DNA of 63,590 nucleotides, filler included, from Reclinomonas americana ATCC 50394 (lineage: Eukaryota), in the NCBI GenBank assembly GCA_048213135.1. It is 5 parts of 4 records of this genome, joined end to end, with 100 filler letters (N's around TTAATTAATTAA, not from the genome) between each part and the next. Parts side by side here need not be neighbours in the genome. Positions count along the whole stretch, not along the records: positions 1 to 15,719 come from PS015887.1; positions 15,820 to 38,336 come from PS015888.1; positions 38,437 to 57,985 come from PS015888.1; positions 58,086 to 62,023 come from PS015890.1; 1 more part is not named here. One strand, written 5' to 3'. Position 1 is the stretch's first letter. The number at the start of each line of letters is the position of its first letter. The notes under the pieces were generated by a model. It saw only the letters and a list, made by a program, of their open reading frames with translations. It searched no databases and was not told the DNA's origin. Positions 103 through 60,021 of the stretch are shown here, one piece after another. The position numbers and the translations under genes were made by a program.

Positions 103-268
103 GATTCCAACAAGGACGACAAGATCTCGCTGCAGGAGTGGATGGACGGCATTCACAGCGTCGACGATGTGTTCCGCGAGTTGCGTGCTCCAGTGCAGTC
201 GTGCTTTGTTTGTTGGTGATTCACAACTCTCCACCACCAGGATCTTCTCCACGCTCGAGCTGATGTAA
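103..268 (+). CDS. EF-hand calcium-binding protein (recoverin/calcineurin-B-like), last two exons (103-179, 241-268)
   Basis: EF-hand loop DSNKDDKISLQEW. Intron 180-240 (gttgcgt...ccag) restores the frame to ...VFREIFSTLELM*. Confidence 0.7.
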
Positions 269-367
269 GTCGGCCGCCCTGCTTGCTGTTCACTGCAGGT
301 GTCTTCCATTTCTTTTTCGTCGCCAGTGAAAAGAGCACTGTTCTACATTCAAATTGTTTTTTTAATA

Positions 368-872
368 CTATGCAACAAACACGCTGTCTGACACGGCGCC
401 GAGGAACACGTCCGACATGACGTGCGTGGCAAAAAAGGCCATAAACGTGACGTTGGAGAAGGTGGCCAGGAACTGTGCGCCCTCCGACTCGCAGTCGAGG
501 AAGTTGCCGCCGGTGATGCGCATTATTAGCCAGCGGAACAGCACGCCTTCGACGATCTCGCTGGCACACGCGCCGAGTGCGAGGTACACGACGCGTTGGA
601 ATCGCTCGTCCGACAAGCTCGACGCGTACCTCGGATAGAAGCAGTTGTTGAAGGAGAAGCGGAGCCAGGTGGCGAAGAAGAGCCAGTTGAACAGTGTGAT
701 TACGCTGGTGGCGTTGCGGAACCAGTAGGCACGGCGTCGACTGCTGACGTACTCGTCGAAACTCGGCACACGGAGTGGCAGGTGCTTGGCGAGGCGCACC
801 CAGAAATTGTAGACGCCACGGAACATGCTGAGCGGGTACACGATAAAGTTGCTGATCCAGTGCACGACAAAG
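368..872 (-). CDS. Multipass membrane protein of unknown family, 3' part; upstream exons lie in or beyond the 873-1821 gap
   Basis: Open frame of about 167 aa with several hydrophobic segments (VITLFNWLFFATWL, VVYLALGACASEIVEGVLF, VTFMAFFATHVM), ending at TAG 368. Confidence 0.6.
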
Positions 873-2475
873 NNNNNNNNNNNNNNNNNNNNNNNNNNNN
901 NNNNNNNNNNNNNNNNNNNNNNNNNNNNNNNNNNNNNNNNNNNNNNNNNNNNNNNNNNNNNNNNNNNNNNNNNNNNNNNNNNNNNNNNNNNNNNNNNNNN
1001 NNNNNNNNNNNNNNNNNNNNNNNNNNNNNNNNNNNNNNNNNNNNNNNNNNNNNNNNNNNNNNNNNNNNNNNNNNNNNNNNNNNNNNNNNNNNNNNNNNNN
1101 NNNNNNNNNNNNNNNNNNNNNNNNNNNNNNNNNNNNNNNNNNNNNNNNNNNNNNNNNNNNNNNNNNNNNNNNNNNNNNNNNNNNNNNNNNNNNNNNNNNN
1201 NNNNNNNNNNNNNNNNNNNNNNNNNNNNNNNNNNNNNNNNNNNNNNNNNNNNNNNNNNNNNNNNNNNNNNNNNNNNNNNNNNNNNNNNNNNNNNNNNNNN
1301 NNNNNNNNNNNNNNNNNNNNNNNNNNNNNNNNNNNNNNNNNNNNNNNNNNNNNNNNNNNNNNNNNNNNNNNNNNNNNNNNNNNNNNNNNNNNNNNNNNNN
1401 NNNNNNNNNNNNNNNNNNNNNNNNNNNNNNNNNNNNNNNNNNNNNNNNNNNNNNNNNNNNNNNNNNNNNNNNNNNNNNNNNNNNNNNNNNNNNNNNNNNN
1501 NNNNNNNNNNNNNNNNNNNNNNNNNNNNNNNNNNNNNNNNNNNNNNNNNNNNNNNNNNNNNNNNNNNNNNNNNNNNNNNNNNNNNNNNNNNNNNNNNNNN
1601 NNNNNNNNNNNNNNNNNNNNNNNNNNNNNNNNNNNNNNNNNNNNNNNNNNNNNNNNNNNNNNNNNNNNNNNNNNNNNNNNNNNNNNNNNNNNNNNNNNNN
1701 NNNNNNNNNNNNNNNNNNNNNNNNNNNNNNNNNNNNNNNNNNNNNNNNNNNNNNNNNNNNNNNNNNNNNNNNNNNNNNNNNNNNNNNNNNNNNNNNNNNN
1801 NNNNNNNNNNNNNNNNNNNNNAGCCAGGTGTGCGAGAAGTGTCATGTGTTGTCGTCACTGCACATTGTGAGGTGCGCTGTGAGTGTGAGAAGCACAGGAA
1901 GATGGCAACGACGCCGCGCACACACTCACACTCGCACGTGCACACACACTGAATCCGTGGGCACCGCTGGGTGGGGCACAACGCGCGCGTTGTGTGCGAG
2001 AATACTGGCGAATTTAGCGATGAATGTGTCCTGTTTCGTTCACTTCCGAATGGAAGGTCCATGCAGCACCAAAGCAAAGACAGATTGAGGATGTCCTGCC
2101 TCTTCTTCCGGGTGTTGCAGTCACAGTGAACGGGGGTTATCACCAGAATTCAAAAAAAAACTGGTGAGTTTTATTGTACTTGTCCGGTTTCATGACGAGA
2201 GTTGTCGGTACGCTGCGTCGAGAGTCACATGCAGTCAGCGTGTGTGTTATACACTCAATAAATACACAAACGTGAGCACAGCAACACCAATCAGCACTCA
2301 CCCTCTGCATGTTGACAAACAAATGTAAGTTCGAACACACGAGACAAGAGGTGAGAAAGCGAACAATGTAAGACAACGCGAGGAAGGTCGACCAACCCAC
2401 TGCGGTGGGTCAAGAAACAGTCAGTCATCTCTCTGCAGAGAGAGGGGCAAACAGAAGACGCAACATAAAACCGAG

Positions 2476-4533
2476 TCACCAACGCTGTAGGTGGACACTG
2501 CCGCGTACTGTTGTCGCAAGCAACTCAGCACACTCACCGCCATCGCGCGCGCATGCACGCACAACCATCTTACTCACCAATTGTCCAGGCAAGTCGCTGT
2601 AACATACTCCCAACGCTTCACCTGCAAAGCGAGTCACGAAAAGAGCAGGAAAAATGTGTCCAGCCAACTTTATCGCCTCACCGTTCTTGGCAAAGAGCAA
2701 CTCGCGACTGTCCATGTTGACCGTCATTTCTGTGGGGTTTGCGTTCAGTCGGTGCGGGAACGAGCGAGCGTGCACAGAGCGCGACAATTATCAAGAACCA
2801 ATCACGTCGCCGGTGGAGACTGGCGAGGCGTATGGATTCCGAGCCCCACCTGTGTGCGTCCGCGAGTCAGAGAATTGAGCAAGGTGACCTGCTGACGACT
2901 GCGCATGCAGCACACGCAACTGCGTGCTCGATGGCCCTCCTTGAACTGCACGAGGCGTGAGATTGAGCGACACAGCGAACACTTGGCACACACGTCTTGC
3001 ACACACCTCGTAGCACCATCCCTCCGATGACTCCTTCATGTAGGAGCTCCACGCTGAAAACGTCGCCGTGACAACGCCAATCCCCGGGTACCTTTCATGG
3101 TCGATGAGATCAGCACACACACTGCCAGAGTCGAAACACAGACACGCATAATTGTGGCGCACCACATGCCCCTGGTGTAGTTGACGACGCGGAAGGTGTA
3201 GAGGTGCACACCGCGCTCCATCAGAAAATTGGTCCGGCATGTGCCGCCGTTGCCTTGCACAGTCATTATTTTCTTGCCTGCAACCGGAATGGAGGTGAGG
3301 TGGTGCGCGGTGTCACGCGCACGAAGCACACAAACCGTCTTCCTGGACTTCAATCCGCTGTGCAATTCACGTAGTCGGTGAGAAAGAACAAGAGTCACAT
3401 CGATCACTGGCACGAGGCAGACGCACTCGGTCAGCCTGGAAAAACTCAATGTTGCGCTGCGTCATCAGCAATTTCGGCAGCATTTGTCGCAGCTCCTCCG
3501 GCAGGGTATTCGCCTTGGGCGACTCCAGTATCGACTGGAGCTGCTCGCCAACGTGCAACCTCGACACAATCGGGAACCACGAGTCCGGATCCGCGGCGAG
3601 AGCATTCACGATGACGCATGCCAACTGCAGTGCCACTGACGCGTCCTCGGTGGACAGAGACGAGGAGAGCAGACTCCACAACGAGTTCCACAGCAAGTCT
3701 GGCAGATCGGCTGATGAGCACTCCAGCGCACCGACTCTACAGGCTGTTCGGAGAGAGTGTGAGATTGCAAAGCAAGCACTGAAGCAACGAAGACACAGAC
3801 CGCACAAGGTGTTTCGGAGGACAGCGGCCAGCGAGAGTCGTAATGACTGCGGTACTTGCGCACTCACACACTGCTGCACAATGCACGCCAGCTGGCCACT
3901 CTCCACCAACCAATCCTGTGCCGCACTGCATCCTACATGGGAGATGTTGTTGGGCCGGCAGATTGCACACTTAGTGGCAAGCACGCCCGAGCACTCACCA
4001 GCCACAGCATTCCGCAACACGCCAGCAGCCAACAGAGAGACTTCGAGGCACTCATCGCCCGCACTGCTGCTGGTGTCAAGCGCCAAATGCACCACTTGCC
4101 GCAATGCGCCCGGAGCGAGCATCAGCATGTGCTTGGCTGCTCCGTTCTCTGCACAACGATGCATGAGCTGCATGACACACGCGGCGTGGCAAATGCGGGA
4201 GGAAGACAACACACTGTAGAGCAGAGTGGCAAGGGCATGCAATGCACGCAGGCGGACTTGATGCGCATGATGGTGACTTGTGAGTGAGACAAGTCGCTGC
4301 AGCGCAGCACAGTTGCTCTCGTCAAACTCTGCTGTCGCGCAAAAGAAGCAGCGCGTCATCGATGAGAGAGAGAGAGAGGGAGTCGCAGAATGCATCACAG
4401 CACACACATGTGACATGCCTTGTGCATCGCCACGAGTGCCGTCATCGGTGACTTGCAGTTTGCTAAGTATTGATTCAATGCTGCTGGCCGACGAGGCACA
4501 GTCGGCACACGCAGCAGCGAGAGACGACAACAT
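2476..4533 (-). CDS. Armadillo/HEAT-like repeat protein with a C-terminal SPRY/B30.2-like domain (multi-exon)
   Basis: Helical repeats (ALHALATL, AAGVLRNA, AAVLRNTL, ACVIVNAL). C-terminal segments GVHLYTFRVVN..W-YPGIGVV..GWCYE..MTVNMDSRELLFAKNGE..SDLPGQL resemble SPRY beta-strands. GT/GC-AG introns. Confidence 0.55.
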
Positions 4534-4591
4534 CGTGTGCACACTCAGTGCAAGTCACGCCAAAGGTCCACAGGACGACCACTTTCGGTGT

Positions 4592-7500
4592 TTATGTGAT
4601 CTTGTCAAGCATGGACCTGCGGTAGACCTCGTACAACCGCTTCTGGAGCCACATGAAATCCTTCTGCACACTCGGCAGGTTCCAGGTCCTCGTATACGCC
4701 GTGAACGGTGGTGGAGCGAGGCCTACGGCCAACGCTGACGACGACGATGCATCCTTTTGTCGCTCAAGAACCAGTGCACGCCCCTGTTCATCGAACGTCG
4801 CACGTGAGAAACATGCACGCAGCGATGGAAACATAGTCGAGATGCTCACCTGCGGGAACCACGAGTGGTCTCGGGCGGCCAACTGCACCACAGAATTCAG
4901 TTCACGCACCAAGTGAACGCCTGCTCCAACACACAAAACCTTCTCGGCCGCATGCCATTCGGCGCCGGAGAACTTGCGTGGGTCGGCGTACCACAAGTGA
5001 ATGATGAAGAGAATGTACGAGAGCACCACATGATCGTTCTCGCGGTGCCGACGGAACCCGTCGCCCACCCGCTCAAACACCGTGGACTCCAGACCGCAAA
5101 TGTAGCAGTTGGTGCGCTTGTCGTTGACCCGCACTTCACGCTCTGAACGCAACGCCGAAAACGTGTCGAGGATTTGCGCCAGGAAAATATTGAGCATCAG
5201 CACAGTGATGATGGCCCAGAACACCAAGTCGAAGAACACCCGGCCCTGCATGCACCCACCACCGCTCAGCATCGCAGAGAGCATCACAGATAAACAGCGA
5301 CTGGCGCACCCCAGCCGTATCCGGTGAAAACACTTGTTCCCACAGACCCGTGCCTCGGAATCCGTAATTGAGGGTGGCAACAAAGCAACCAAAGAGGCTG
5401 CTGCAGAGCCGAGTGTCGCCGACGACGAAATCGTTGTTGAAGAAGCTGCCACCGAGAACCACAAACATGTAAGTCACCCAACCAACACGCACAACAGAAA
5501 CCCCCCTGCGGACACGCAACAGAAACGGGAAAAGCGCACTGAGGTAGATGAGGCTCACGGCCAGCGCGCCCTGTGCGATCGTGTGAGACACTGTTTTTAT
5601 GGTCGGCGCAGCCACACTTGCGAACACAAACCGTGAGCAACAGCGATGCACGATTGATGGCCACGGCACGGACGATTTGGAATAGCACCGGGAACGCCAG
5701 CACAATCTCCAGCAAGAGGAACGGGAAAAACAAGTACGAGATGACGCAGCCGAGAATGGCGAACACAAAGTAGGTCATCTGCCACACCAAGAAAATAGGG
5801 TCGTGTCAGTTCCGCCACCAACCCCGTCACATAGTGTATCAGCACGACCTCAGCTCACCCTGTACCACAAGTATAACTGCGAGGCGCAGCGATAGATAAA
5901 CTGCCACACGTTGCGCATGTTCCACCTGATGGTGTGCATCGACTGGAGGCTTTCGAGTCGTGGCTGCCAGCGATCCAGTGCACGCAGCAGCATTGTGTGC
6001 TTCATGTCGACCCACAGCACCAAGCCGCATAACACAGCCACGATAATCGCCAGCACATACAACAGCACAGTCCACGCAGCATGTCGCGTGCCCACCGTAC
6101 TGCGACGGCACACAAAATCGTGGGGGGATGAGAACGAAATGAAGACACGCAAGCAAGTAGACTCAGTGGCGCGCGCAACTCGACGCCACCGTCGTCGTCC
6201 AGCGAGACAACGACAAAGCTCGCCAGCAGCGCAATGTTGAGCAGCACCACAAAGGCGAACATGAGTCGCGAAAGGAACGTGTAGTGCCACTGAGCAGTTC
6301 GGAAGATCGGTCGTGACTTGGAGATCCACAGGCGCTGCGCCTCTCGCCACACCAGTGGTGCTGCTGCGATCAGATTCTCGACCTTGTCGCCAGAGGTGGA
6401 GATGGGTGCGACCTTCTTCCACTGCTTGAAGCTCTCGCACTTGACGGAGCGACACTCGATTGGAATCTCGAATATAATCTTCGGCACGAGAGGGAGGAGG
6501 TGAGCACACTTCTGTCTTCCCGTGCACACGACAGCAGAACACACACACACACACGCACATACCTCCTCAATTCGATCGTCGCGAACGACTTCTACACGAG
6601 CCACTGCGCTGGCAAAGATCTCCAGACGCTGGGTGCGAGGATCGGCATTGACAAACTCCGGTAATCTGTACATTTCCTCCTGGCGAGCAGTGCACGAGTC
6701 AGCACGCAGTTCAACGAACGATACCACCACCGGCACTGCAGCGCAACTCTGGCAGCGGGCGGGAGCAGTCCAATCAAACGAATGTGCAGTTTGTACAGGA
6801 GCAGACCGAGTTCCCACAGCAAGTCCCGAGCCTCCGCCAACAATCGCTCCTCTTCCTTGGAAGGCATCGCGCACTTGAGACAATCCCCATCACTCAGTAG
6901 CGAGTGAACGCGCAGCAGCTTGATGATCTGCAACAAGGGGAGGCACCGTAAGCAACACAGAACGGTCGCGCCATGACTCGCATCGACGCACCAAGGGAGC
7001 GTCGTCGATAAACTCAGCCAGACGGCGCTCACGGTTGGCGAGCGTCGTCGTGTTTCCCTCCAGCAATGTGAGTAGCATGGTGGCCGCATCGACCTGACAC
7101 TGCATGTGCAGCCGCGGGCTCGTGAGCGACGCAAGCGGCAGGTGCAAATGCCGCACAGCCAACAGCAGCAAGTCCGACGTCATCAGCGCATTTTGGTTCG
7201 ATTCGCAAGGACTGCGCAAAAAAAAAAAAAACAAACTGAGCTTCAGCACAATCGGTGGCTTGCTCGACAAGCAGCCGCACAGAAGTACCCTTGCATGACG
7301 GCAGTGGCGAAACCAAAGGCCTCCATGAGAATCCGCGTATCCGCTGTCTCCAAGTGATCTTTTTGCATGCGCGAGTGTCAGTGCGAAAATCACTCTCTCG
7401 GAAGAACTCCATGGCACACACCTTCCACCACAATGGCATAGCGCGTCACCTCGTCGATCAAATCGGCGTTCATCCGCCATCCGGCTTGGAATCGCATGAA

Positions 7501-10500
7501 TTCTTGCAGAGCTGCATGAGGTGACCGAGGTGAGCTCTCGCGATGACTAACACACACACACAGCACACGACGCAACGGTGAAAGCGCCCAGCACACAGCA
7601 CGCGCAAGAATCGAATAATCTGCAGCGCAAAGCCGCGCTCCTGGAACACGCGCTCGCCGCGATTGACAAACGACGCTGCTGCGGCGTCGCTGACGCCCGT
7701 AGTCGAAAGACTCACTGACGTGGATGACGCGTTGCTGCTGTTGGCCTCACGTCGGCGATTTGTATTCTCGTAGTACTCCTCCGCGGCGATGCGAAGTCGG
7801 TGTCGCAGTGTGGCGAACATATATTCGTGCTCCCACGATGACAACTCGCCGCGAAACACCTCCTGCACGCTGCGAATGAGGATGGCATAATGCACAGTCA
7901 CACTCTACACATTGCGATCTGCAAACCTGAGCTCCACGGTTCGCTCCCTCCAGCAGCGCGTAGGCCAGCACAAGCACATCGTGAACTACCTGGTCGGACA
8001 CGGCGCATGTGATCAATCGAAAAACCTGCACGTGCAACCGCAGGTCAGGCACCGCGAACAAAAAATTGTCTGCATCGACAACGCTTGCTTGTCCTCTCAC
8101 CATGTGCGCACATCCCTGCTCACACAGCATTGTCTGTGCGTCCGGCCCCGACTGCGCCACACTGCGAAGCACCGAGATGAAAGTGCAACCTAGCGTATCG
8201 AACGCACTTTCCGCCGGCTCGTCGTCGTGGAATGGCGACACCTTGGAGACCAGATTGAGTACGCCACAGATCAAATCGCAGCATGTGGCCGGTCGCTCGC
8301 GCAGTAAGTGTACAAGCGATGCGCGCTCCTGCTTGCTATGCTGCTCGTGACGCATGCGACTGCGGAAGTACAGGAATTGCTCGCGCCTAGGTGTGCAGCG
8401 GTAGTGAGGGTGAGAAGTGTGTGCGAATGTGCGCGTGCGAACGACAGAGAGTAACGCAACAGGAGTTCGTCAGCATCAATGTTGATCTCGGTGACCGAGA
8501 CCGGCTGTTGCTGTTGTTGTTGTTGTTGTTGCTGTAATTGACTGCCGGATTCTTGCGCCGGCATGCGAAAAGCAGCCCGACGGAGAAGCGATCCAACACC
8601 TAACAGACCGCCGGCGCTATGCATGTCGAATTCGTGACGATAGACACGCGCCTTGGAACGTGCTTGCAGTCGCGCGCCCGTGATCGAGACAATAGTCGGT
8701 CGACGGCGCCTTGGTTGAGGCGCAGACCCTGAGCCGGACGAGCGCGGCTGCGCTAATGGCAATCCACCGCCATTGCCACTACCAAAGGTGGGCGTCGTAC
8801 CGCCACCGCTACCGCCCAATCCCGACGGCAAAGTTGGACGTCGATGGGGGCGTCGAGCCTTGTCAAACATCGAAATCAGCGAGTCAACAGAGCCGGAGGT
8901 GCCGGCTTCCGACATGGCCGACAACTCGGATAGGTGGTCCACCAGAGAACGAACAATCACCGATTGCTCGCTGCGAGACGTATGCAGTCAACAAGACTGT
9001 GTTGGCAAGAGACGACGTGACACCTGTGCCAATTCTGCGCAACTCATCCCAGTCGGACTGACGGGTGCCGAGTGCCAAGACGTGCTCGAGGAACGGGATG
9101 ATGATATTGTAGACGTAGAGTTGCATTTCTGCAACGGTTCCCGAGTCCACTGCCGCCTGCTGTGCACCAGGTAGCACAGGCGACTCGCCTTCACCACCAT
9201 CCATCGACCCCTCACTACACACAGCACGGCACGACGAGTGAGTTATCAGACTGGCGATGCTCAGCCGGTGTCATGATGTACGATATTTCTCACCTTGGTG
9301 CCGAAAGCGACAGCACGGGTGCATCACGCTGCAGTAATGGGGTGTGCCCGCTTGACGACGGTGACATTGCGTCCTCCATCTCCACCTGTGTCACATCCAC
9401 AACATCCAGCTGATCGAATGAGCCGTCGTCTCGCATCAGCGGATGCTCCAGGTAGGCCTCGATGTGGCGGTCGACAATCGCAAGGAGGCGCAGCGTGATT
9501 TCGGAAGACTGGATCCCCAAGGCCGTTGGCGGTGGCGTCGTGTGAATGTAAACCTACATGCCATCGTCACCTGTCAGGCCAAGCAGCTCCAGCCAAGATG
9601 CACACAGACTCTCTCACAACTACATCACCTCATCGATCAAGCGCAACAGGCCCGAACGCACAGCCGTAATGGTCGCCTGCTCCAACAACTCAACAGCATC
9701 CTCATATGAGATGACATTCTGAATCACCGTGTCCGCCTGCGCACACACGCACAGCGTCGTCAGCACACAGATAATGCTGTGTCAGTCGCCGCGTGGAATG
9801 CACAAACCGAGTGTCCACGACCGGTGGCACACGACGCGAGAAGGTGCACCATGCGAATGTGATACGCCAGTGGGCTGGTTTCGGGATTGGTCAGGTGATC
9901 GTTGCATGCCATCAGTCGCAGCCTGTTGCAGGAGGTTGACGGTGAGTGAGAAATAGCAGCAACGCCCTGCATGTCCCGCAGATGTTGAAATGGCGTACCA
10001 CTCTTGCCGCTCCGATGGTTGCGTGAAGAGATGCAGAGCGTCGGTGTGGCGGAAAGCGAGCGCCTCAGCAATGAGCCTCTGATTCCGCGGCAGCGGCGCA
10101 CCACGACTCATCACCAAACTCTACGGATACGATTCCAGTCAGGGTAAACACAGAGGCGACTGGTGCAGGCGCACGACCTGACCTCGAGCAGCGCGAGTCG
10201 GGAGCATCGTCGTTCGCGCACACACATGACAAGAATCTCGTCGAGGAGGCTTTTGTCGACTCGAAGTGCCAGTCTACTATTCTCCCTGAACATGGTGGCC
10301 ACCACATCCTCGGCTCCGAGGTTCATTCTAGGCAGAGGGAGAGCATCGGTGAGCACTGGTACGAAAAAAACAACGAATACAAACGCATACCCAATGTACG
10401 GCATAAAGATGGAGAGCCGACGGAAGAGAGCCTCCTGACGCTTCGACGAACCAGTAATGTACTGTAAAAGCACACAGCGCAAACCACGTGAGATCTCCGC

Positions 10501-13500
10501 TCAAATCGTCGCCAGCTCCACCCAAAACATCGCCACATGCCTGCGAGAAAATCTCGAACACTGTGCGAAACAGCGCTTGAATGGGGCTGTCGGAGCCGAG
10601 GACAGCCGCCACGTTCTGTGGCCTGCGGCAGCACACGACTTGCAGTGAGCACGCAGCAACACAATTCTTTCGGGCGTGTGCACGCTTGTGAAACGCAACG
10701 CCACACTGCGCAGAATGGTGAGCAGCGCATCGTCGAGTGCCATGGCTCGAAAAGTCTCGCCGAGCACAGGTGTCGATCCAGTGGAACCGGCCAGCAGAAT
10801 GTCGCGCAGCGATCGAGTCAACGTAAGCAGCTGGTTGACGGCACGCTGATCTGCATGCCATCGATCGCTCTTGCCCGACACAGCCTGCAGCAGTGCCGAG
10901 TGCGTATTCCACAGCGTGTCAAGTGCTGCGACTGCGTTCGGTGAGACCACCAAAATGACGTCGCCAGCGGCGGCGTAGAACGAGTCGAATTTGCGGTGCA
11001 GTGCCACCAGCGAGGCAAAGGCCTCGGTTTGCAGCTGCCGGTTCGAATACTTGGCAAGGTCGAGCAGCACTGCCACCGCACGAGGAGTCGGCGGCACAAT
11101 GTTGGTCTCCTGCGCAGCCACGTGTCACGCACGACAAAGGGGGCGATACTGTCACAAAGCGCTGCTACTGTTCACCTCAATCCACTGCGGCACGTGCAGC
11201 AGCGGGGTGCTGGACTTGAAGAGTCGAAGCGCACTGGAAATACGCGCGCTCGTCTCCACTTCACAGATCAGTTGGAGGATTCGCAGAGCGACAATCTTGC
11301 AATCCTGTACGGGGTGGTGATTAAAACTGAGAGAACCGCGTTTGTTGGAAAGATCACTCTGATTAACCATGATCAACTTGTTGTGTTCGTTTTCTGCAAA
11401 GCGGAACTCTGCCGAGACGATTTCATCTGCAGCATGCATGCATGATTAGAGACACTGGGAATGTGAACATCGCTTCCACCATCACTCACCGGCATACATG
11501 CTCACTGCAAGTCAACATTCATACAATTAATGACATGTCATTCAACTTGGGCGCCTTTGGTGAAAGAGGTGGGTGTGTGCACGCAACATGTGTACACATC
11601 GGTGGCACCATCGAGCAAATCCCACAGTGCCGGCAGGATGGCGGTCAGCGGGCGAGCACCAAGAAATCCCTCCATAATGAGAACTCGCAGAAGCTTGAGC
11701 AACTGTACCGCACGGCACAACACTTGAGTACATGGCAACAGTCTCATGCACGAACATTGACGAGAGAGAAAGGGCGTACCGAGTGCACATAGCGTGACCG
11801 ATCCGGTTCGTGCCAATGCAGCACCGTGTACTCACGCTGTGGCGTGGTGGTCAGTTGTTCAATGCAACGCGCGGAGACGTTCACAGAAAAAGACACACAC
11901 CAGCGTCGACAACACTTTGTTGGCCACAGCAACCACAGCGCTCACTAGCTCTCCTTGATCGCCGTCGGCCACTAGTCGAGAGCAGTGCATGTCGAGGTCG
12001 TTGGAGCCAGGCTGGTCATTGTCCACATAGGACCACACTCTGACAGGGTCGACAATCTGTATCGGCTCAAAGGGTTCCCGATCGACGTGGCACACACGCA
12101 GAAGAGTCATGAAATGCGACCGTATCGAGAAGGGCAGCCGCTCGTCAAATGCTCTGCACCCAACCACCTGTGAGTGAGAGAGAGAGATCACGCTGCAGGC
12201 GATTGAGTTCGACGACAACAAACCCGCGCGTGACTTCTTCCATGCCAAGTCCAAACACTGGAGCTAGTACAGGCAAGGCCAACGGATTGCGATCCTGTGC
12301 GTGCCGAGTGCACACGGTCAGTTGTCCACACAAAGCACCAGCGAGAACACCAGCGATGCAGTACTCAACAGCAGCACCGACAGCAAAGAAGTTTAGCGAC
12401 TCGGTGAAAAAAGCCACCTCCTCGGCGTTCTTTTCATCCCGCGCCCACGCCACCAGGTTCACACGCTTTTCCAGGCGCATGTCTGGGGTGTAGAAGAGTG
12501 CATAAAGCTCGTTGGCTGCCATCTGCATTCATGCATGCACAAGCAGTCAGTGCCTCAAGGCAGTGCATATGATACAAGTGCGCGGGGCGCACCTCAATTC
12601 GCAAGTGCTGCCAGTTGTAGGCCGGTTGGTCAAGAAAGCGGAACATCTCAATCTGGTTGGACACCACCGGCACTCCGTTACACGTCAACGGCAACAGCTG
12701 ACCCCGGAATAGTCTGCTCTCGTGTGAATAATGGAGACAACCAACGAGCGAGCAAGCAAGCAAGCAGCACGTTTCACCTGGCCTGTCGCGTCTCGCCCGC
12801 AACTGCCGGTATGATGATGTCCAGGCGCGCGTCTGCGAAAAAACATGCGAGCGTAAACAACACACCAGTCGTGTGTAGCAGAGAGTGCCTCTCACAGGCA
12901 GCAAACATTTGGTGGTCAACGAGAGGTCGTCCCGGCAGCTGTTTTTTGGTATCCGCATCGTCATGAGTGCAAGTACCGCACTGAATGAGTCGCAGTGAGA
13001 CGCAACGTTTCTATCCACACATCCAGCGCGCCAATCATCAGCGAGAATTGTGAGCGCAAGCGGTCCACTCCAGCTTCACCGACAATACGCTTGTTTCGTT
13101 TGTTGTCCTTGACCACCTGTCGCAATAGTCTGTCGACAAGAACGGAGTGCAAATGTGGCGAATGAGCCACGTCGAGGACCGGCAACAGAGAATGGCGGAA
13201 GAATGGAAGAAAGTCACCTGTAAACCAAGCGCAATACATACTGCGCCTTGGCGTTCTCGGAATCGCGGATGGTCAACCCCGGATATACTTGCTGGGGAAG
13301 GCGAATGATTTGGAGCAGCACTCGAAGGACCTGCATGGATGAGCAGCAGCGTGCACAGTAAGAATGCAACAATAGGGAACGACAAGACGAAGGCGCGGGC
13401 CACCTTCAGATCGCGAAGGAGATTCTGGAAGATCTCAACCGGCGGCCCTGCGCAGAAAGACAGAGGAAAACAAATGGTCAGAGAGAGAATCAACGAGTGG

Positions 13501-49400: not shown

Positions 49401-51056
49401 TTCTCTGTGCGCAGCTCGCGATTCGTCTCCTCCAACTCATTCACGCGCTTGCTCAGCGAGTCCATTCGGTTCATGTGCTCTTCGCGCTGCCGCCAGCCGG
49501 ACGCGACGGCACCCGAGGGCGCCATGCCCGGCATGTCGCCGGCCAGCGAGGAGCCAACAGCACCGCCTCCCATGGTCATACCCGGGTGCGACTCCAGTGC
49601 GTCCTGCAACGCCATGTTTTCGTTCATCAGCTCGCGGATTTGTGCATCTGCGCAGAGTGGTGAGCGACACCAGCACTGTCGTTGACAAGAACATTGCGAT
49701 CACTCACCCTTCTCCGCCAGTGCCTGCTGCAAACCACTGGCTGCGGCACTCGATGCACCGCCGGGATTGGCGAGTGGTCGCTTGCGGATCTCATCCTCGA
49801 GTTCCGTCACACGTCGACGAGTCTCCTCCAGCTCGCCTGCGGCCTTTTGCTCTCGCCGCAGACCCGCCTCCAGATCGGCATCCTTGCGTGCGAGCACACG
49901 CGAGAATTCTTCGGCACTGCGCTTGATGGTGGTGTCGAGAGTCGTCTGCAGCTTGTCGTACTCCTCGCGTAGCTGCCTGCACCGTGAGCGCTCCTCCTCC
50001 AGCTCCTTCTGCAACTGGTCGGTGGCCGCCTCCAGATCGCCAATCGTCATATTCTTCTCCTCCAGCAGCGTGCCGAGACTGAGCAAATCGCGCTGCACAA
50101 TGGCCACATCATCCATGGCCACCACCCGCTGCGCCTCGGCCTCCTGCAACTTTTGCTGCAGATAGAATGCCTCCGCTTGCAGCTTGTCAATGGTGTGCAA
50201 GTGCTCCTCGGTCTGCTGCGCAGCACTGCTCTCCACCGTCTTCTGCTGCATCGTGCGCTGATGCAGCTGCTCATTCTGCCGCTGCTGCGTCTTCAGCTCG
50301 TCACGCACGAGATCCAACTCGCGCTGCACGTCGCCCAGCCGCGTCGTAGCACGTTCTTCCTTCTCCTGATACTCCATACGCTCGCGCTCCACCTGCGCCA
50401 GCTGCTCCTCCAACTCACTCCGTTCCTGCTCGTGCTGCTCCCGTGCCGCACGCAGCTGCTCGCCCAGCTCCTTCACCATGCCCGATTGATCAGCTACGTA
50501 CACACAAAGACAAGTGAGACACAGTAGCGACAAACATGCTTCACAGCAGCACAGAACTGAATTCGCGCAGGCGGATCTCCAGCGTGGCCACGTTGCTCGT
50601 CAGTGCCTCGTTCTGCCGATTGACAATCTCCAGCTCGTTCTGCAAATTCGTCTGCATCTTGGTGCGCTCATGCACCGCACGACTGTGGCGAAGAAAGACG
50701 ACACGTCATCGACAGAGGGCGCCAAGAGAGACTGTGAGACAACGCGACGAAACTACATGAGCAACTGCGCTGTTTGGAGCGCTCTGAAGATCGATTCGAG
50801 CTGTGTGGGCACCATCACACGCGGATCGATCTGGAACTGCCAGAAGATGCCCTCCAGCGTGTCCAGTGCGTCACGCGTGTTGCCATCGAGCTCCTCGTCG
50901 GCTTCCACTTGCTGTGAGCGCGATCGATCAGTCAGTCACACAGCGAGTGTGTGTGCGTGTGTGAAGGAGAGAGAGAGAGGGAAGGAGAGACGCAGCTGGC
51001 CATAGTTGCTCCGTGTCGATCAGCGCAAAGTCGTCTAACCTCAAGAACGACGACAT
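37449..51056 (-). CDS. CEP290: Centrosomal/transition-zone protein CEP290, about 45 exons
   Basis: Very long coiled coil; IEQ|GVYGLKEAHDEI (cf. YESGVYGLEDAV.EI); LREEQ|EERRMLIQHG; C-terminal LAPFTPEFFRQLQDLKLKH (cf. FDPSFFEEIEDLKYNY). Confidence 0.88.
37884..38824. repeat. 21-bp (variant 25-bp) minisatellite inside a CEP290 intron, spanning a gap
   Basis: More than 30 copies of cggtcactgtgcgttccctct and variants. Confidence 0.95.
38247..38336. other. Assembly artifact: degraded 454 paired-end (loxP) linker followed by mate sequence from ~30150-30196
   Basis: cgtactacttcgtagtacgcgctaccttactcgacgttatacg resembles CGTAATAACTTCGTATAGCATACATTATACGAAGTTATACGA. The following cctcaggccagcaactct..g..ggtc..cgcc matches the GT61 exon start about 8 kb away. 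It sits at a contig end. Confidence 0.75.
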
Positions 51057-51587
51057 CGCGACTCGTCGATCGTCGCTGGCAGTTTTTTGGCGCGCAGAGG
51101 ACAGGCAGGACACGTGATACGCCGTGGATAGCGCATGCAGGCAGAGTGTTCGTGGAGTGTGTTGGTGGCTCTATGCACGCGTGTGGTGACGGCGCCAGTC
51201 AGCGAGTGGTGACGATGGCGCGACGTCGCAGGACATTTCGAGAATGCATGCAAGCGCACGTGTTCTGCCGTCCGTGTCTTTGCCGTTGCTTTTACATATG
51301 AAGCCATAGTCACATACGCACATTCACGGCAGCAGAGTAATGGTGAGTGAACGTCGTCATCATGGACAGAGACAATGCTCGCGCACACTCAATACACGCG
51401 CGCACAGGTGAGAGCGTGCGCCGCCCACAGCACACAGTCTATGCCAGAGTGAGAGAAAGAGAGCGCGCGTGCGTGCGTGCGTGCGCGTGTGTGAGAAGAG
51501 AAACGCGTGTTTGCGTGTTTGCGTGAGCGGCCATGAGAGGTGCAATGTCCTCACACACTTTGCACACTCTCTCGTAGACTTTAAGAA

Positions 51588-52120
51588 ATGGCGTTGCAAC
51601 CCTACTTGGACACGATCCGGAAGACGCTGGATGCGGCACTGTGTTTGACGAATTTCGCATCGCAGGAAGTTGCGTTTTTTTAATGTGCAAGTCAAGAAGA
51701 AAGAAGTTCATCCGAGCTCATTGTGAGAAAAAATGTGTGCAGGTGGAGCGACACAACAAGCCGGAAGTGGAAGCACAGTTGAGTGTGTGTGAGAGAGTGA
51801 GAGTGTGCGTGTTTTTTTCCTCATGTGTTATATTGTGTCTATTAGAACCACTCCGGAGGTGGTGTTGAAGCCGGTGGAGGTGTGCCGCTCGGAGATGGAG
51901 AAGTGCCTCATTGAGCCGAGCATCAACTCCGTCCGCATCTCAATCACTATCAAGCAGGTGCTAATCACTGAATGCTGTTTCTTTTCTCCTCTCTTACATG
52001 CAGACACCTTTTCCTCCTGCTGTCTGCTAATCCCTTCCTCGCTGCACCCTTGGTCATCTCACTCCTTCTCGTGCATTCTCCCTTTCTTCCGCTGTCTTCT
52101 CTCTTCCTCCTCGTCTTCCG

Positions 52121-52157
<37 letters not shown>

Positions 52158-53420
52158 GCACACTCACATAGTTGCCTTCTCCTCCTGCTGTCTGCTAATC
52201 TCTGCCTCACACACTGCACATCGGTCACTCTCTCTCCTACTCGTGCATTCTCCCGCTGTCTTCTCTCTTCATCCCTTTTCTGTGACTGCCTCGCTCACTC
52301 CCTCCCACCCTCACTCGCTGCTCACTCATGCACTTGCACACTCACCACTCACTCGCACACTTGGCTCACACGCTCACTCACTCCTACTCGTGCATTCTCC
52401 AGCTGCCTTCTCTCTTCCTCGCTTTTTACATCTGCCTCGCTCACCTTCTCCCTCCCTCCCTCGTTCCCTCCCTCACACGCACACCCACTCACTCATTCAC
52501 TCACTCTCTCTCCTCCTCCTCTCCTTCTCTCTCTCTTCGCTTTCTCCTCCTCGTCTCCTTTCGCTCCCTGATCTCCCGTCCCTTCTCTCTCCCCTTCTCC
52601 TTCACTCCGCTGATCCTCTCCGCGACAGATTGACGAGTTGGATCGACTGCTGGTGAAGCGGTACACACGATTGTTGCAGCAGCGTGCAGCGTTCTTTGTT
52701 GTGCTGCGGAAAAAGTTGTGTCGGCTTCTTGGTGATTGTGTGTTAGCACTCGCGTGACTTTTTCCGGGTTATCGTGCAGGCCGGTGCCGGACTACGACCT
52801 CAGCTTCCTCATCACCAACAAGCACCTGGAAGGCATGCCGAAGGACAAGCTGATTGACTTTATCATTGCGTTCATGGACGAGGTGGACAAGACGGTGCGT
52901 TTGCTGGGTCGGCTCTCATTCTTGTTGGATGTGGTCTCTGGTGTACTGGAGATCTTAATTCTCTTGAACTGTGTTGGAGGCTGTCACACGGCAGCACGGT
53001 TCTGCGCACTGTTCCTCTGTTCTCGTCTCTCTCTCTCTCTCTCTCACACACACTCTCTCACTCACTTTCTCACTCACACCATGTCATTCCTGATCTTCCG
53101 CGTCCTGCATCTTGCATGCTTCTTTCGCTCTCTCTCTGTCTCTCCCCCCCTCTCTCCTCTCTCTCTGTCACTCTCTCCGGCTCACTTTCTCCTTCACGCC
53201 ATGTCATTCCTGATCTTCCGCGTCCTGTATCTTGCACGCTTCTTTCTCTCCTTCACTGATCTCGCATCTTCGCGTGCTTGCATCTCTCTTGTTGTTGCCT
53301 CACCTCGTGTTTCTCCGCGTCCTCTTTTCCTTCCTCTGCCTGCTGCAGGTGTCGGACATGAAGCTGTCGGTCAACACCCGCGCCAGCGCCGTGGCCAAGG
53401 AGTACCTCTCCGCGTTTTGA
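51588..53420 (+). CDS. ARPC4: Actin-related protein 2/3 complex subunit 4 (p20-Arc), 6 exons
   Basis: [100 protein letters not shown]..|[23 protein letters not shown]. Confidence 0.97.
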
Positions 53421-53964: not shown

Positions 53965-54015
<51 letters not shown>

Positions 54016-57000
54016 AGACAACGAAGGGAGGAGGGCGAGGAGGAGGGGAGGGAANNNNNNNNNNNNNNNNNNNNNNNNNNNNNNNNNNNNNNNNNNNNNN
54101 NNNNNNNNNNNNNNNNNNNNNNNNNNNNNNNNNNNNNNNNNNNNNNNNNNNNNNNNNNNNNNNNNNNNNNNNNNNNNNNNNNNNNNNNNNNNNNNNNNNN
54201 NNNNNNNNNNNNNNNNNNNNNNNNNNNNNNNNNNNNNNNNNNNNNNNNNNNNNNNNNNNNNNNNNNNNNNNNNNNNNNNNNNNNNNNNNNNNNNNNNNNN
54301 NNNNNNNNNNNNNNNNNNNNNNNNNNNNNNNNNNNNNNNNNNNNNNNNNNNNNNNNNNNNNNNNNNNNNNNNNNNNNNNNNNNNNNNNNNNNNNNNNNNN
54401 NNNNNNNNNNNNNNNNNNNNNNNNNNNNNNNNNNNNNNNNNNNNNNNNNNNNNNNNNNNNNNNNNNNNNNNNNNNNNNNNNNNNNNNNNNNNNNNNNNNN
54501 NNNNNNNNNNNNNNNNNNNNNNNNNNNNNNNNNNNNNNNNNNNNNNNNNNNNNNNNNNNNNNNNNNNNNNNNNNNNNNNNNNNNNNNNNNNNNNNNNNNN
54601 NNNNNNNNNNNNNNNNNNNNNNNNNNNNNNNNNNNNNNNNNNNNNNNNNNNNNNNNNNNNNNNNNNNNNNNNNNNNNNNNNNNNNNNNNNNNNNNNNNNN
54701 NNNNNNNNNNNNNNNNNNNNNNNNNNNNNNNNNNNNNNNNNNNNNNNNNNNNNNNNNNNNNNNNNNNNNNNNNNNNNNNNNNNNNNNNNNNNNNNNNNNN
54801 NNNNNNNNNNNNNNNNNNNNNNNNNNNNNNNNNNNNNNNNNNNNNNNNNNNNNNNNNNNNNNNNNNNNNTCCTCCTCCTCCTCCTCCTCCTCCCTGTTCT
54901 TTCGCTTGATGGCAAGTTCTTGTTCTTGTTCTCCTTCTTCTTCTTCTCCTCCTCCTCCTCCTCCTCCTCCTCATCGTTGCTGTTCTTCTGCTTCTTCTCC
55001 TTCTCCTTCTCCCTTCTCCTCTTTCCTTCTTCTTGCGCTTGTGCTGATTTGTGGCGTCACAAGGTGACTTTTCTGCGCACGACGGCCGACACATGGGTGG
55101 GCGTGGCTGGGCTGGACGACAATCCCGACGAGCAGTTCGATTGCGCGCTGCGCGCCGTCACGATGGCCACGTCGATGATGGAGGTGCGTTCAGTACATGT
55201 GCGGCTCCCGTGGCATCCAGTTGATGGTGTTTGGGCAGGCGGCTGGTGAACTGGGTTTGGATGTGCGGATTGGCATGCACACGGGTACGGCGGTGGCCGG
55301 TGTCATTCACGTGGATGCGCCGTTTGAGTTGTGGGGAAGTTGTGTGCACTCGTGATTTCCTACCGACCTGTGGTGTTCACTGTGCTAACACTTCCTTTCT
55401 CCCCGGCAGCCTCAATCAAGGAGGCCACGCTGTTGCTGGCCGAGTGTCCGCCGAACCGCATTCACGTGTCGACCACGACTTTCCAGTTCGTAATGGACCG
55501 TTTCCGCTTTGAGGAGAGAATTGTTGCGTTGACAAAAGGGGCGTCCAGTGACGCAGTTGTCAGCTGACTCGTGAACAGACCTCGGTCAGCAGCGAGGAGA
55601 GAGCCTCGTTTCTGTTGGCCGATCGCATGCCAATGCCGGAGCAGCAGGCAATGGCGTTTGGCGTCGGGGCCGGTGTGCAGGGCGAGGCGAGGAGAAAAGC
55701 CCGTGTGTTGGTGGCCGAGGACAGCAACATTATTCGGCGTGTGCTCATGCGCATGCTGCAAGACATGGGATGTGAGGTGCAGATTGCCTCGAATGGGCAG
55801 GAGGCACTGAAGGCGCTGGTGGATTCGTGGCCGTTCGAGTTGGTGCTGATGGACATTAATGTTGCGCACGCTCACATGCACATGTGTGTATGTGTATGTG
55901 GTGTGTATGTGTGACGAGAAGATTCTTTTTTCTTGTCTGACATGCCTTGGCCGCAGATGCCGCACATGGACGGATGGGAGACGACGAGCCACATTCGCTT
56001 CGACCTGCCGGATCCGATTCGCTCGGTGCCGATTGTCGCCCTCACTGCATACGCAAACTCGGATGCCGTGGAGCGGTGTTACCGTGAGGTGCGTTGCTCG
56101 TGTGCATGCATGTGCTTATTCCACCCACTCAAACTTGCGTGTCGGCAGGGCATGGATGACTTTGTGACCAAGCCGCCGAACAAGGATGTGATTCACCAGG
56201 TGTTAAAAAAGTGGCTGGACAACTTCTCGTCGCAGGCGTCGGTGCACTGGGAGGGTCGGGAGTCGGCGGCCAACGCTGGTGCCGGTGCCGCCTCCACTGG
56301 AGTCACCTCCCCGCAGCAGGTTGGTGGAGGAGAGAGGAGCCATGCAGGCACGCCTGTCAATTTGACTGACGAGACTGGGTTGGGTGCAGATTACGGCATT
56401 GTCTGTGGCAGAGGTGCCGATAGCACGACCAAAGATTCTGATCTGCGACGACAACAAGATGACGCGTTCCTGTTGCGTCGCGGCCTCGTGCCCATCTCCT
56501 CTCCCTCCTCCCCAGCCGCACTCACTTTTTGCCGTACAGTGTTTGTACGGTTACTGCAGCGACTCGGCTGTCGCGTGATCGAGTGCGAGAACGGGCAGGA
56601 GGGTGTGGAGGCGTTGCGCGCCAACTGGCCCGTCGACTTGGTGTTTATGGATATTTATGTTGCGTCGCTTCCCTGCTCTTCCGCGCCTGCGCACTACGCG
56701 CGTATGTGTTGATGATTCGTGGTCGTGCAGATGCCAGTGATGGATGGGTACGAGGCCACGCGGCGCATCCGGGAGCTCGCGTTGCCCATGTCGGCGGTCC
56801 GCATTGTGGCCATTACGGCGTTTGCCACTCGCGACCAGGCGGCCATGATCTACGACCGAGTTGCGTTGTTTCTTTCGCCGCTCTGTTCCACCGCCGGCTC
56901 ACGTTTGCGACTCCCCTCAGGGCATGGACGACTTTGTGACAAAGCCAGTGCAGATCAGCGTGCTGCGGGAGCTGCTGGAGACGCACGTGACGTTACCAAC

Positions 57001-57028
57001 CGAGGCTGCCGGCATCGAAAGCCAATGA
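53795..57028 (+). CDS. N-acylated protein with a degenerate class III nucleotidyl-cyclase domain and two C-terminal response-regulator receiver domains; gap at 54055-54869
   Basis: MGMCAS N-terminus; LRTTADTWVGVAG, VRIGMHTGTAVAGVI, FELWG, NRIHVS; REC1 VLVAEDS..LVLMDIN|MPHMDG..IVALTA..GMDDFVTKP; REC2 ILICDDN..VFMDIY|MPVMDG..IVAITA..GMDDFVTKP. Confidence 0.85.
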
Positions 57029-57129
57029 GACGGAAATTGTGTGTAGAGACGGAGAGAGTGGGGGAAAACCCTAGGATTAGTGTCGTGTAAACAGAAAAAA
57101 CATCTTTCCATTGGCTCCCCCTCCTCCGC

Positions 57130-58546: not shown

Positions 58547-58589
<43 letters not shown>

Positions 58590-58857
58590 AGAGAAAGAGA
58601 AAGAGAGAGATCATGCTTTTGTAGTCTGCCTTCATTGTGTTGTGTTGCGGAGGGAAAGGGAAAGCAAAGAGAACGAGAGATTGAGAGAGAGCATCTCCGT
58701 TTCTGTTGCTCTCGGGCATCGCTGTTTCTCGGTGTCTGTCATTCTCGTTCTTTCTCGTGCTACTCTGTATCCGGTACGAGTGTATCCCTCCCTTTGCTCT
58801 TGTTCTCACGGCATCTTGTATGTGCTCCCCTTGTGTCTCTCTGTTTCTCTTTCTCTG

Positions 58858-58901
<44 letters not shown>

Positions 58902-60021
58902 TCATATGCGTCAGTGTGACAAAGAACATTCTGTATTACATGGTCTCATCTGCCAGTCCCTCTGTGCAGTCGGAGAGCGACCTGAGCCGCGATGTGGCGC
59001 GCTATTTGGTGACTGCGTTTGGCAAGTCCGGCGCACGACGACCCATCGACTGGCAGACCATTCGCAAGGACGTGATTCAGCCGGTGACTACCCGTCGCAC
59101 CAGTGCCAAGAAGATCATGCAACTCGTGCGCTACAAGCTGCGCGAGATCTTTGGCTATGATGTGATCGAAGTGGCCGGTTGCGTCTTGCGCCCCCTCTCT
59201 CCCTTCCCTGACAGCACACAGCTCCCTCACTTTTCGCCACCCCGCAGCCAACAAGTACATTCTGGAGCTGTACAGGCCGCCTGGTTCGCAGGCGGACGAG
59301 TGGAAGGCGCGCGTGCAGGAGGTTTACAGGTTTGCTGGCGGTGTTGCTGCGCGTTGCGAGTTGGCGTGATGAGCAGTGCTCACGCGGACCACACAGTGAG
59401 GCGTACACGCGCGAGGAGTTCTCGCAGCTCGGCTTGCTGCACGTGGTGCTCTCGCTCATTTTCGTGTCGCCGAGCAAGAAGCTGGAGGAGAAGACGCTGG
59501 AAGCACGTTTCGTGTAGATTACAAAGAGGTTGTTGTTGTTCGTTTTGGCTGACATGTGATAACTCGGCGCAGCCACGCTGCTGCATCGTCTCTCGCACGC
59601 GTTCCGATTGGAGGTCAACGACTTGCCAAGTGCCGGCTTTGGCAACACATACAAGACGGTGAAGGACCTCATTGAGAAGAAATTCGTGCCGGAGGGGTGC
59701 GTCAACCATGCCACACGCACACTCCCGACACACAGCTTTCTCACACACAGCACGGCGCAGGTACATTAGCATGCGCGAGGAAGAGGGCGACGGCAAGAAG
59801 GAGAGCGTGTACTCGTTTGGTCGGCGCTTCTTTGTCGCCGAGTCGACGCTGCCGGTCGACATCAAGGACTACGTTACCGCGCACTCGGTACGTGCAGCTT
59901 GGGGTGCACCGCACGCCGTGTTTTTCATGCAATCTAACACGCGCATGCGTCTCCGCAGGGCAAGAAAGCAGAGCAGGGCGGTCCCAAGCGTTCGGCTGCG
60001 GCGGCCGCCTCGGCAGAGTAA
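58086..60021 (+). CDS. NSE3: MAGE-domain protein / SMC5-6 subunit NSE3; 5' end in the gap
   Basis: DVARYLV..PIDWQTIRK..KLREIFGYDVIEV..KYIL..GLLHVVLSLIF..KKFVPEGYI..VYSFGRR, typical of the MAGE homology domain. Confidence 0.8.

Follow-up and report, generated by a model that had tools for sequence, protein, structure and literature searches.

Two classes of 5' splice sites tied to the last exon base in a genome window of Reclinomonas americana

Ordinary eukaryotic 5' splice sites carry G as the last exon base (position -1) and follow the consensus ..G/GURAGU, where the slash marks the cut. The usual 5' end of the U1 small nuclear RNA (snRNA), ACUUACCU, pairs with them such that -1 G faces C9, +1 G faces C8, +2 U faces A7, +5 G faces C4 and +6 U faces A3. 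A variation described in human is the shifted register, where every pair between the 5' splice site and U1 lies one position over (Tan et al., 2016, PMC4856993, where it is credited to Roca and Krainer, 2009); according to that paper, all validated noncanonical registers together account for 1.5% of 201,541 human sites. In the tandem donor of STAT3 exon 21, exactly where U1 binds is reported not to determine which splice site is chosen (Kramarek et al., 2024, PMC11162779). Here we analyse a 63,590-base stretch of the genome of Reclinomonas americana ATCC 50394 (assembly GCA_048213135.1), called the window below, in which GT-AG introns begin with two classes of donors that are tied to the last exon base, as an earlier note on this DNA had observed and our analysis confirmed. 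All evidence comes from this one window, with about 20 genes, and from one protein derived from an expressed sequence tag (EST).

The case works like the human shifted register but differs from it in scale, in having a tight consensus and in being tied to the last exon base. As described by Tan et al. (PMC4856993), the human register likewise has the +1 G of the intron in place of the -1 G of the exon while the cut stays at GU, but it is rare, atypical and was proven site by site with suppressor U1s. In the window it is a main class of 24-26% of the called donors, known from sequence alone; its consensus is a tight one of its own (GUUGCGU, GUUUCGU), and the last exon base separates it almost cleanly from the ordinary class. 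The likeness to STAT3 (PMC11162779) would be that the U1 site does not set the cut and a later step, there involving U6, picks the GU; STAT3, however, concerns a single exon in human, where two GUs compete at a distance of three bases, whereas in the window each site has one GU, the offset is one base and dozens of introns are involved. In the literature within our coverage, which leaves out most subscription journals and bioRxiv supplements, we found no genome with such donors at high frequency.

The observation is cleanest, and free of any intron call, when taken as a strand asymmetry of the donor motifs. On both strands of the window together, GTTGCGT occurs 30 times against 12.9 expected (30 was reached in 0 of 100 shuffles) and GGTGCGT 22 times against 12.2 expected (22 was reached in 1 of 100 shuffles). 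Within the spans of the gene models, where the strand of the gene alone was used, independent of intron calls, GTTGCGT was found 23 times in sense and once in antisense direction, and GGTGCGT 18 times and once, respectively. The same hexamer behind A, C or T (AGTGCGT, CGTGCGT and TGTGCGT) gave 25 sense to 27 antisense occurrences. Conversely, GTTGCGT behind A, C or T gave 21 to 0, and GGTTGCGT 2 to 1. GTGCGT therefore acts as a donor signal almost exclusively when G precedes it, and GTTGCGT when A, C or T does. Moreover, the extra base must be T, because GTAGCGT, GTCGCGT and GTGGCGT together occurred 22 times in sense and 12 times in antisense direction, compared to 23:1 for GTTGCGT; a T-only inserted base is what pairing of +3 U with U1 A7 predicts. 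Like ordinary eukaryotic introns, those of the window have GT-AG ends, and -1 G precedes about 70-80% of the ordinary donors. Their core, however, is GUGCGU or GUKYGU instead of GURAGU, and the main hexamer without -1 G shows no sense-strand excess.

Introns were called with a gene finder that admits GT-AG introns only and scores coding sequence by log-odds, donors by a two-component profile, acceptors by a profile of their own and intron lengths by a prior; its training was iterative and started from Pfam-supported frames. The donor score covers intron positions +1 to +9 only and includes no exon base, so the last exon base can be read out without bias. The trained donor mixture consisted of about 70% GT(G/T)(C/T)GT and about 30% GTTGCGT. 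Donors with G at +5 were classed as ordinary, and donors starting with GTT, with G at +6 and no G at +5, as shifted. Model 1 gave 145 introns in 17 gene models, among them 93 ordinary donors (75 with +5G and +6T, 18 with +5G only), 37 shifted donors and 15 others. Model 2, with a better, three-periodic Markov coding model, gave 156 introns in 22 gene models, 38 of them with shifted donors. The introns were short, with alike medians of 66 and 69 nucleotides (nt) in both classes. The support of an intron is given in bits, as the score cost of removing it, and a consensus set was formed of donors called by both models or hand-checked.

The last exon base differed strongly between the two classes. 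In model 1, 61 of 93 ordinary donors had -1 G, compared to 2 of 37 in the shifted class (Fisher p = 7e-11), an odds ratio of the order of 30; the figures were 44/55 versus 2/28 when introns with a support of at least 4 bits were considered (p = 9e-11). Model 2 gave 66/98 versus 2/38 (p = 1.6e-11). In the consensus set, 59 ordinary donors remained once those starting with the repeat GTGTG were set aside, and G preceded 45 of them; it preceded 3 of the 35 strict shifted donors (p = 7e-11), the other bases before the latter being A (16), T (8) and C (8). Counted by exon (model 1), those with a final G had 61 ordinary and 2 shifted donors, while those with another final base had 32 ordinary and 35 shifted donors, or 11 and 26 at a support of at least 4 bits.

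The earlier note had counted 35 of about 37 shifted donors behind an exon not ending in G, a count that model 1 reproduces. The two exceptions it listed, g/GTTGCGT at 14078 and 59178, were also recovered; the latter has the best support of all introns, and the former appears real as judged by eye, although both gene models skipped the 70-nt exon in front of it (14079-14148), which reads TMFQQASIFNARDQVLLQHVESR. That ordinary donors mostly follow G held as well. The exceptions, put at about eight in the note, were far more numerous in model 1, which contains 32 ordinary donors without -1 G, a figure pushed up by doubtful calls within GT repeats. Both of the ordinary exceptions that had been named were supported, C/GTGCGT at 47366 by 11.4 bits and A/GTGAGT at 41978 by 4.2 bits.

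The shifted class is broader than GTTGCGT and includes GTTTCGT, GTTGTGT, GTTGAGT and GTTGCG followed by C or A. Donors that start with GTT and have GT at +5/+6 (GTTTGT, GTTGGT) were preceded by G in 12 of 13 cases, whereas those reading GTTGCGT or GTTTCGT were preceded by G in 1 of 25. The class is therefore decided by the position of the G-T block and not by the T at +3. Raw counts of the base preceding GT(G/A)(C/A/T)GT are uninformative, being swamped by GT repeats.

Seven introns were checked independently of the gene finder, five against the EST-derived protein and two by profile coordinates. The protein (P0001), a complete open reading frame of 166 residues with an EST accession according to its EukProt label, was found by a word search with the ARPC4 frame of the window. 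The spliced translation of the six ARPC4 exons was identical to it in 166 of 166 residues. Examining all protein-preserving shifts of the boundaries by up to 9 bases, we found a single GT-AG solution for each of the five ARPC4 introns, and three of these have donors of the form A/GTTG.GT. For the three shifted introns the sole alternative was a slide of both ends by one base, which gives a TT start and a GG or GA end. It could accordingly be argued that the boundaries are wrong and that shifted introns are cut after the G (NG/TTGCGT...AGN/), as non-canonical UU introns in the ordinary register. The slide indeed keeps the protein in all three introns, and even the same mRNA in two of them. Slid cuts, however, would need UU starts together with GG, GA, GC or GT ends, and yet AG always lies exactly one base before such an end, while the GT-AG rule has a single solution in each of the five introns.

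The receiver domains of the cyclase gene provided a second check on the boundaries. Both domains are split at the same place, ..MDI(N/Y)/MP.MDG, by T/GTTGCG(C/T). The Pfam profile runs to position 52 and 50, respectively, upstream of the junction and resumes at 52 downstream, contiguous and free of gaps across it. In both domains the GT-AG cut yields Met at the junction and the cut slid by one base yields Val; we take this Met to be a conserved receiver-domain residue. Together with the ARPC4 data this leaves the slid boundaries a very improbable explanation. All seven introns start with GT, end with AG and restore the frame, as U2-type GT-AG introns do, and the five shifted ones among them (51669, 51778 and 52715, EST-supported; 55861 and 56659, Pfam-supported) start at the G of GTTG, so that the cut lies at the GU one base upstream of the U1-register position. 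For the remaining introns GT-AG ends are assumed by the calling rule. The U12-type donor is /RTATCCTT, and none of the listed donor heptamers of the called introns has this form.

We give a probability of roughly 60% to recognition in one register, probably by the 5' end of U1 snRNA, of the string G-(G/U)-U-G-C-G-U, followed by cutting at whichever GU is available. The introns would then be ordinary U2-type GT-AG introns, and their 5' splice sites would all be read as these seven bases in a single register. The recogniser would most probably be the U1 5' end, its C9 facing the first G, its A7 the invariant U, and its C4 and A3 the G-U near the end. The first cut would be fixed only later, by the catalytic spliceosome, which needs a GU at the start of the intron. 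Where the second base is G, a GU begins there and the first G would be the last exon base (G/GUGCGU); where the second base is U, the sole GU lies one base earlier and the first G would become the first intron base (N/GUUGCGU). Exons unable to end in G could in this manner keep the contact with C9 by means of one U added after the GU. We infer that U1 is the recogniser, that it does so with its usual 5' end, and that U1 binding precedes the choice of the cut site, recognition and cleavage thereby being uncoupled.

Every sequence-level test that we ran agrees with the earlier proposal that both classes present G-N-T-G-C-G-T, with the +1 G of the intron standing in for the -1 G. The interpretation attached to it, that recognition needs a G two bases before the conserved T and that the registers of recognition and cleavage are uncoupled, is partly supported: to speak of a strict need for the G goes too far, as ordinary donors at 3426, 24135, 44909, 47366 and 48008 are well supported (10 to 12.7 bits) without -1 G.

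To align the two classes by role, shifted donors were read one base later, with their +1 G in the -1 role. Role +3 was then G in 28 and T in 8 of the 37 shifted donors, and G in 50, T in 16 and A in 8 of the 75 ordinary donors with +5G and +6T. Roles +5 and +6 of the shifted donors were G in 37/37 and T in 30/37, ordinary donors having G and T there by definition. C at role +4 was found in 30 of 37 shifted versus 28 of 75 ordinary donors (p = 2e-5); a tighter hold of the shifted class at this position would be expected if these donors have to compensate for mismatching at role +1. In a duplex model using the U1 5' end printed in PMC4856993, which is human-type and may differ from that of this organism, the 37 shifted donors paired better one base over in 29 cases and better in the canonical register in 6, with 2 ties; the mean number of pairs was 6.3 in the shifted and 4.3 in the canonical register. 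For the ordinary donors with +5G and +6T the canonical register was better in 75 of 75.

The number of pairs does not distinguish this scheme from a bulged-nucleotide register, in which +1G and +2U would pair canonically, one U of +2/+3 would be bulged out and GCGU would pair, so that recognition and cleavage would stay coupled; it forms as many pairs as the shifted register. Human sites with one-nucleotide bulges at +2/+3 and at +3 have been validated or predicted (68 and 51 predictions; PMC4856993, Table 3), and like the shifted donors here these registers have an extra U after the GU and then a block pairing with U1 positions 3-6. The registers described in PMC4856993, however, keep -1 opposite C9, which predicts an enrichment of G at -1. 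No such preference was found in the shifted class, with 2/37 and 2/38 (models 1 and 2) compared to 61/93 and 66/98 in the ordinary class. Furthermore, a bulge should tolerate other bases, but the 22:12 distribution of the motifs with A, C or G as the extra base shows little sense excess. Bulging would also leave the link to exons not ending in G unexplained, as the bulge-free N/GUGCGU would always pair better. We therefore regard the bulged register as unlikely.

Several observations weigh against the single-register reading, or against the tables on which it draws. Concerning the association itself, GGTT is under-represented throughout the window, G preceding GTT in 14-15% of cases and GTG in 26-35%, which bears on the backgrounds of donor statistics. 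In spliced coding sequence, G precedes GTT in 47 of 330 cases (14%), and window-wide in 15%. Measured against 14%, the number of shifted donors with -1 G is not significantly low (2/38, p = 0.08; 3/35, p = 0.25). What sets shifted donors apart is thus a missing enrichment of G and not a significant depletion, and the avoidance of G seen before them is largely the general rarity of GGTT. A background based on codon position (12.3 G of 37 expected, p = 6e-5) was discarded as too naive; the significance of the G depletion was lost with a background aware of the neighbouring bases. The gene finder, moreover, admits GT-AG introns only and over-calls: on a decoy, the reversed but not complemented sequence run through the same trained pipeline, it gave 18 'genes' with 61 'introns', compared to 22 models and 156 introns on the real sequence. 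A fair share of the 156 calls may accordingly be false, especially T/GTGTGT in GT repeats. Two errors are known. Both models placed the donor of ARPC4 intron 2 at t/GTGTGTG (51785), while the EST-derived protein requires A/GTTGAGT at 51778, and the model 1 donor T/GTATGT at 55888 is contradicted by the Pfam profile coordinates, which place it at T/GTTGCGC (55861). Each of these errors made a false ordinary donor lacking -1 G out of a shifted one, and our tables for this reason probably understate the true association.

Taken to the extreme, the rarity of GGTT, which makes the low G before GTTGCGT partly compositional, and the over-calling on the decoy would mean that there is no functional link at all and that the association comes from local composition and the manner of calling introns. 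This seems scarcely credible to us. Composition does not explain the enrichment of -1 G at ordinary donors (66/98 against a background of 35%, p = 1e-10), the strand asymmetry of 18:1 versus 25:27, or the EST-verified introns. The decoy contained 3 shifted donors compared to 38 on the real sequence (model 2), and of its 26 ordinary donors with +5G and +6T only 4 had -1 G; the pipeline itself therefore creates neither the shifted class nor the G enrichment. The solid statement is that -1 G is strongly enriched at ordinary donors and that this enrichment is absent at shifted donors.

The remaining difficulties concern the pairing with U1. With the human-type U1, the mean energies were weak, +1.8 kcal/mol for shifted donors in the shifted register and +4.2 kcal/mol in the canonical register, compared to -4.7 kcal/mol for ordinary donors. 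By simple pairing, N/GUGCGU should be at least as stable as N/GUUGCGU, and the C at role +4 is left unpaired by the usual U1 5' end. Role -2 is an imperfect match between the classes: its bases were A 16, C 9, T 10 and G 2 in shifted and A 25, C 23, T 12 and G 15 in ordinary donors, the difference in G (2/37 versus 15/75) having p = 0.05. Finally, an Rfam scan of the window matched no RNA gene, and a U1 gene is thus unseen there. As the simple model leaves the preference for shifted donors at exon ends other than G unexplained, either a special weight on the contact with C9, which we assume, or a changed U1 5' end is needed. C at role +4 is preferred window-wide, especially at shifted donors, which hints at a changed U1 or another reader at this position.

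A changed or second U1 would have, opposite role +1, a position that accepts both G and U (e.g., U or pseudouridine instead of C8), or would be a variant complementary to GUUGCGU. The consensus GUGCGU, the C at role +4 of 30/37 shifted donors and the weak model energies, all a poor fit to the usual U1 5' end, speak for it, and a preprint on Entamoeba reports a coevolved snRNA. On the other side, the Rfam scan revealed no snRNA gene in the window, and with two independent U1s exons ending in G should carry either class, while 61-66 ordinary and 2 shifted donors were seen, a contrast for which the rarity of GGTT accounts in part. On balance we think this explanation improbable. A single U1 whose position 8 is tolerant would refine the single-register reading and not truly compete with it. 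Extending that reading to the whole genome is more tentative, and we rate its chances somewhat below even: at least a quarter of all introns would be recognised one base off the cut, the G facing C9 would be near obligatory, and the position facing C8 would accept U. Such genome-wide reading may go with a changed U1 5' end, U-tolerant at position 8 and matching G-C at positions 5-6.

The window is eukaryotic, has a G+C content of about 55% with 14 masked runs of N, and is packed with short introns (Table 1). Gene identities were taken from Pfam scans of open frames and exons, which besides the tabulated genes revealed Myb proteins, a protein kinase, ankyrin repeats, a ZIP transporter and a MAGE-domain protein; the family of the ZIP exon was confirmed by a protein atlas search. 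The large gene resembling IP3 and ryanodine receptors has 43-46 called introns, at least 14 of them with shifted donors; its roughly 2,400 codons carry about one called intron per 55 codons. Its N-terminal exon, compared with representatives of a library of 1.84 billion proteins, had 10 distant matches of at most 42% identity, mostly to short fragments, and these were therefore of no help in checking junctions. Protein searches with its C-terminal exon and with the MAGE exon, for homologues or proteins of the organism itself, gave no match. In the cyclase gene, 6 of the 9 called introns are shifted, and the split of its two receiver domains at the same codon boundary (55579-56859, + strand) is consistent with an intron-bearing domain having been duplicated in tandem.

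Among distant relatives, a scan of metagenome contigs for ARPC4 gave 80 loci, the best segments having at most 76% identity and none being a close relative. In the distant loci inspected, the intron matching ARPC4 intron 2 has the junction ..AG/GTAYG, which serves as an illustration and not as a test. Six loci share the intron position after ..PEVEA(R), with an exon end AG and an intron start GTAYG or GTAAC; at this position the ARPC4 gene of the window has a codon for Gln (CA/A) and the shifted donor A/GTTGAGT.

The two long ARPC4 introns (51958-52628 and 52895-53348, 671 and 454 nt, + strand) consist mostly of low-complexity repeats of the TC, CA and CTCAC type, in contrast to the neighbouring introns of 60-75 nt; similar TC and GT microsatellites are found in many non-coding stretches of the window. 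At 47185-47191 (- strand), A/GTGGGT and T/GTTGCGT lie six bases apart in the same frame and with a common acceptor, a possible tandem donor. Strings resembling CTCAC or CTGAC were seen by eye 15-30 nt upstream of the AG in many introns, and the acceptor profile was (G/A)CAG.

Table 1. Genes, checked introns and shifted donor sites of the window. A lower-case letter before the slash is the last exon base; bits give the support of the intron.
Feature	Position	Strand	Evidence
IP3-receptor/ryanodine-receptor-like gene, large	4592..15534	-	Pfam Ins145_P3_rec, RIH_assoc and Ion_trans on exons; both gene models
Long coiled-coil protein gene	41379..51363	-	both gene models; 38-39 called introns; top-scoring model of the window (1501 bits)
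ARPC4 gene, six exons	51588..53420	+	spliced translation equals EST-derived protein P0001
ARPC4 intron 1, a/GTTGCGT...CAG/g	51669..51742	+	sole GT-AG solution yielding P0001
ARPC4 intron 2, a/GTTGAGT...TAG/a	51778..51845	+	sole GT-AG solution yielding P0001
ARPC4 intron 3, ordinary g/GTGCTAA, 671 nt, TC/CA-rich low complexity	51958..52628	+	sole GT-AG solution
ARPC4 intron 4, a/GTTGTGT...CAG/g	52715..52779	+	sole GT-AG solution yielding P0001
ARPC4 intron 5, ordinary g/GTGCGT	52895..53348	+	sole GT-AG solution yielding P0001
Cyclase gene with two receiver domains	55046..57028	+	Pfam Guanylate_cyc and Response_reg on exons; model 2
a/GTTGCGT, 61-nt intron, tail of EF-hand-like reading frame	180..186	+	by eye and translation
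t/GTTGCGT	2458..2464	-	both models; low support, 0.4 bits
a/GTTGCGT	2914..2920	-	both models; 11.2 bits
g/GTTTTGT, fits loose shifted pattern, class doubtful	4933..4939	-	both models
t/GTTGCGT	5514..5520	-	both models; 7.7 bits
a/GTTGCGC	6173..6179	-	both models; 11.5 bits
a/GTTGCGC	6741..6747	-	both models
c/GTTGCGT	7570..7576	-	both models
t/GTTGCGT	8454..8460	-	both models
a/GTTGCGC	9037..9043	-	both models; 8.4 bits
c/GTTGCGT	10693..10699	-	both models; 9.3 bits
t/GTTGCGT	11581..11587	-	both models; 16.6 bits
c/GTTGCGT	13000..13006	-	both models
c/GTTGCGT	13737..13743	-	both models; 7.6 bits
a/GTTTCGT	13902..13908	-	both models; 8.1 bits
g/GTTGCGT, exception, 69-nt intron after 70-nt exon (14079-14148)	14072..14078	-	three-frame reading
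a/GTTTCGT	23939..23945	+	both models
c/GTTGCGT	29190..29196	+	both models; 9.1 bits
a/GTTTCGT	29621..29627	+	both models
c/GTTTCGT	44741..44747	-	both models
a/GTTGCGT	45943..45949	-	both models; 15.1 bits
t/GTTGCGT	46703..46709	-	both models
a/GTTGCGA	47007..47013	-	both models; 9.4 bits
c/GTTGCGT	48669..48675	-	both models; 10.7 bits
a/GTTTCGT	50747..50753	-	both models
a/GTTGTGT	55339..55345	+	both models
t/GTTGCGT	55523..55529	+	both models; 9.6 bits
t/GTTGCGC, receiver domain 1 (LVLMDIN/MPHMDG)	55861..55867	+	model 2; Pfam profile 1-52 stops here, next exon from 52
t/GTTGCGT	56472..56478	+	both models
Intron with t/GTTGCGT, receiver domain 2 (LVFMDIY/MPVMDG)	56659..56730	+	Pfam profile stops at 50, resumes at 52
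a/GTTGCGT	56860..56866	+	both models; 14.1 bits
g/GTTGCGT, exception, MAGE-domain gene	59178..59184	+	both models; best support of all introns, 27 bits
c/GTTTCGT	59507..59513	+	both models; 16.9 bits

If the single-register reading is true, a nearly clean rule would hold, with exons ending in G followed by an ordinary donor and all others by a shifted donor in about one intron in four, while in human the shifted and bulged registers are rare exceptions. In a genome of this kind, a quarter of the donors would be scored wrongly by splice models that use a single position-weight matrix; even our two-component donor model mis-called one EST-verified shifted donor. If it holds genome-wide, the finding would represent a natural uncoupling, at the scale of a genome, between the recognition and the cleavage of 5' splice sites, with exon ends free of the constraint to carry -1 G. 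It would offer hundreds to thousands of natural test cases for asking how, once U1 has marked the region, the cut site comes to be set, and how much weight each contact with U1 has. The evolutionary route would be simple, as a single T gained or lost in the intron would let coding exon ends escape the constraint for -1 G.

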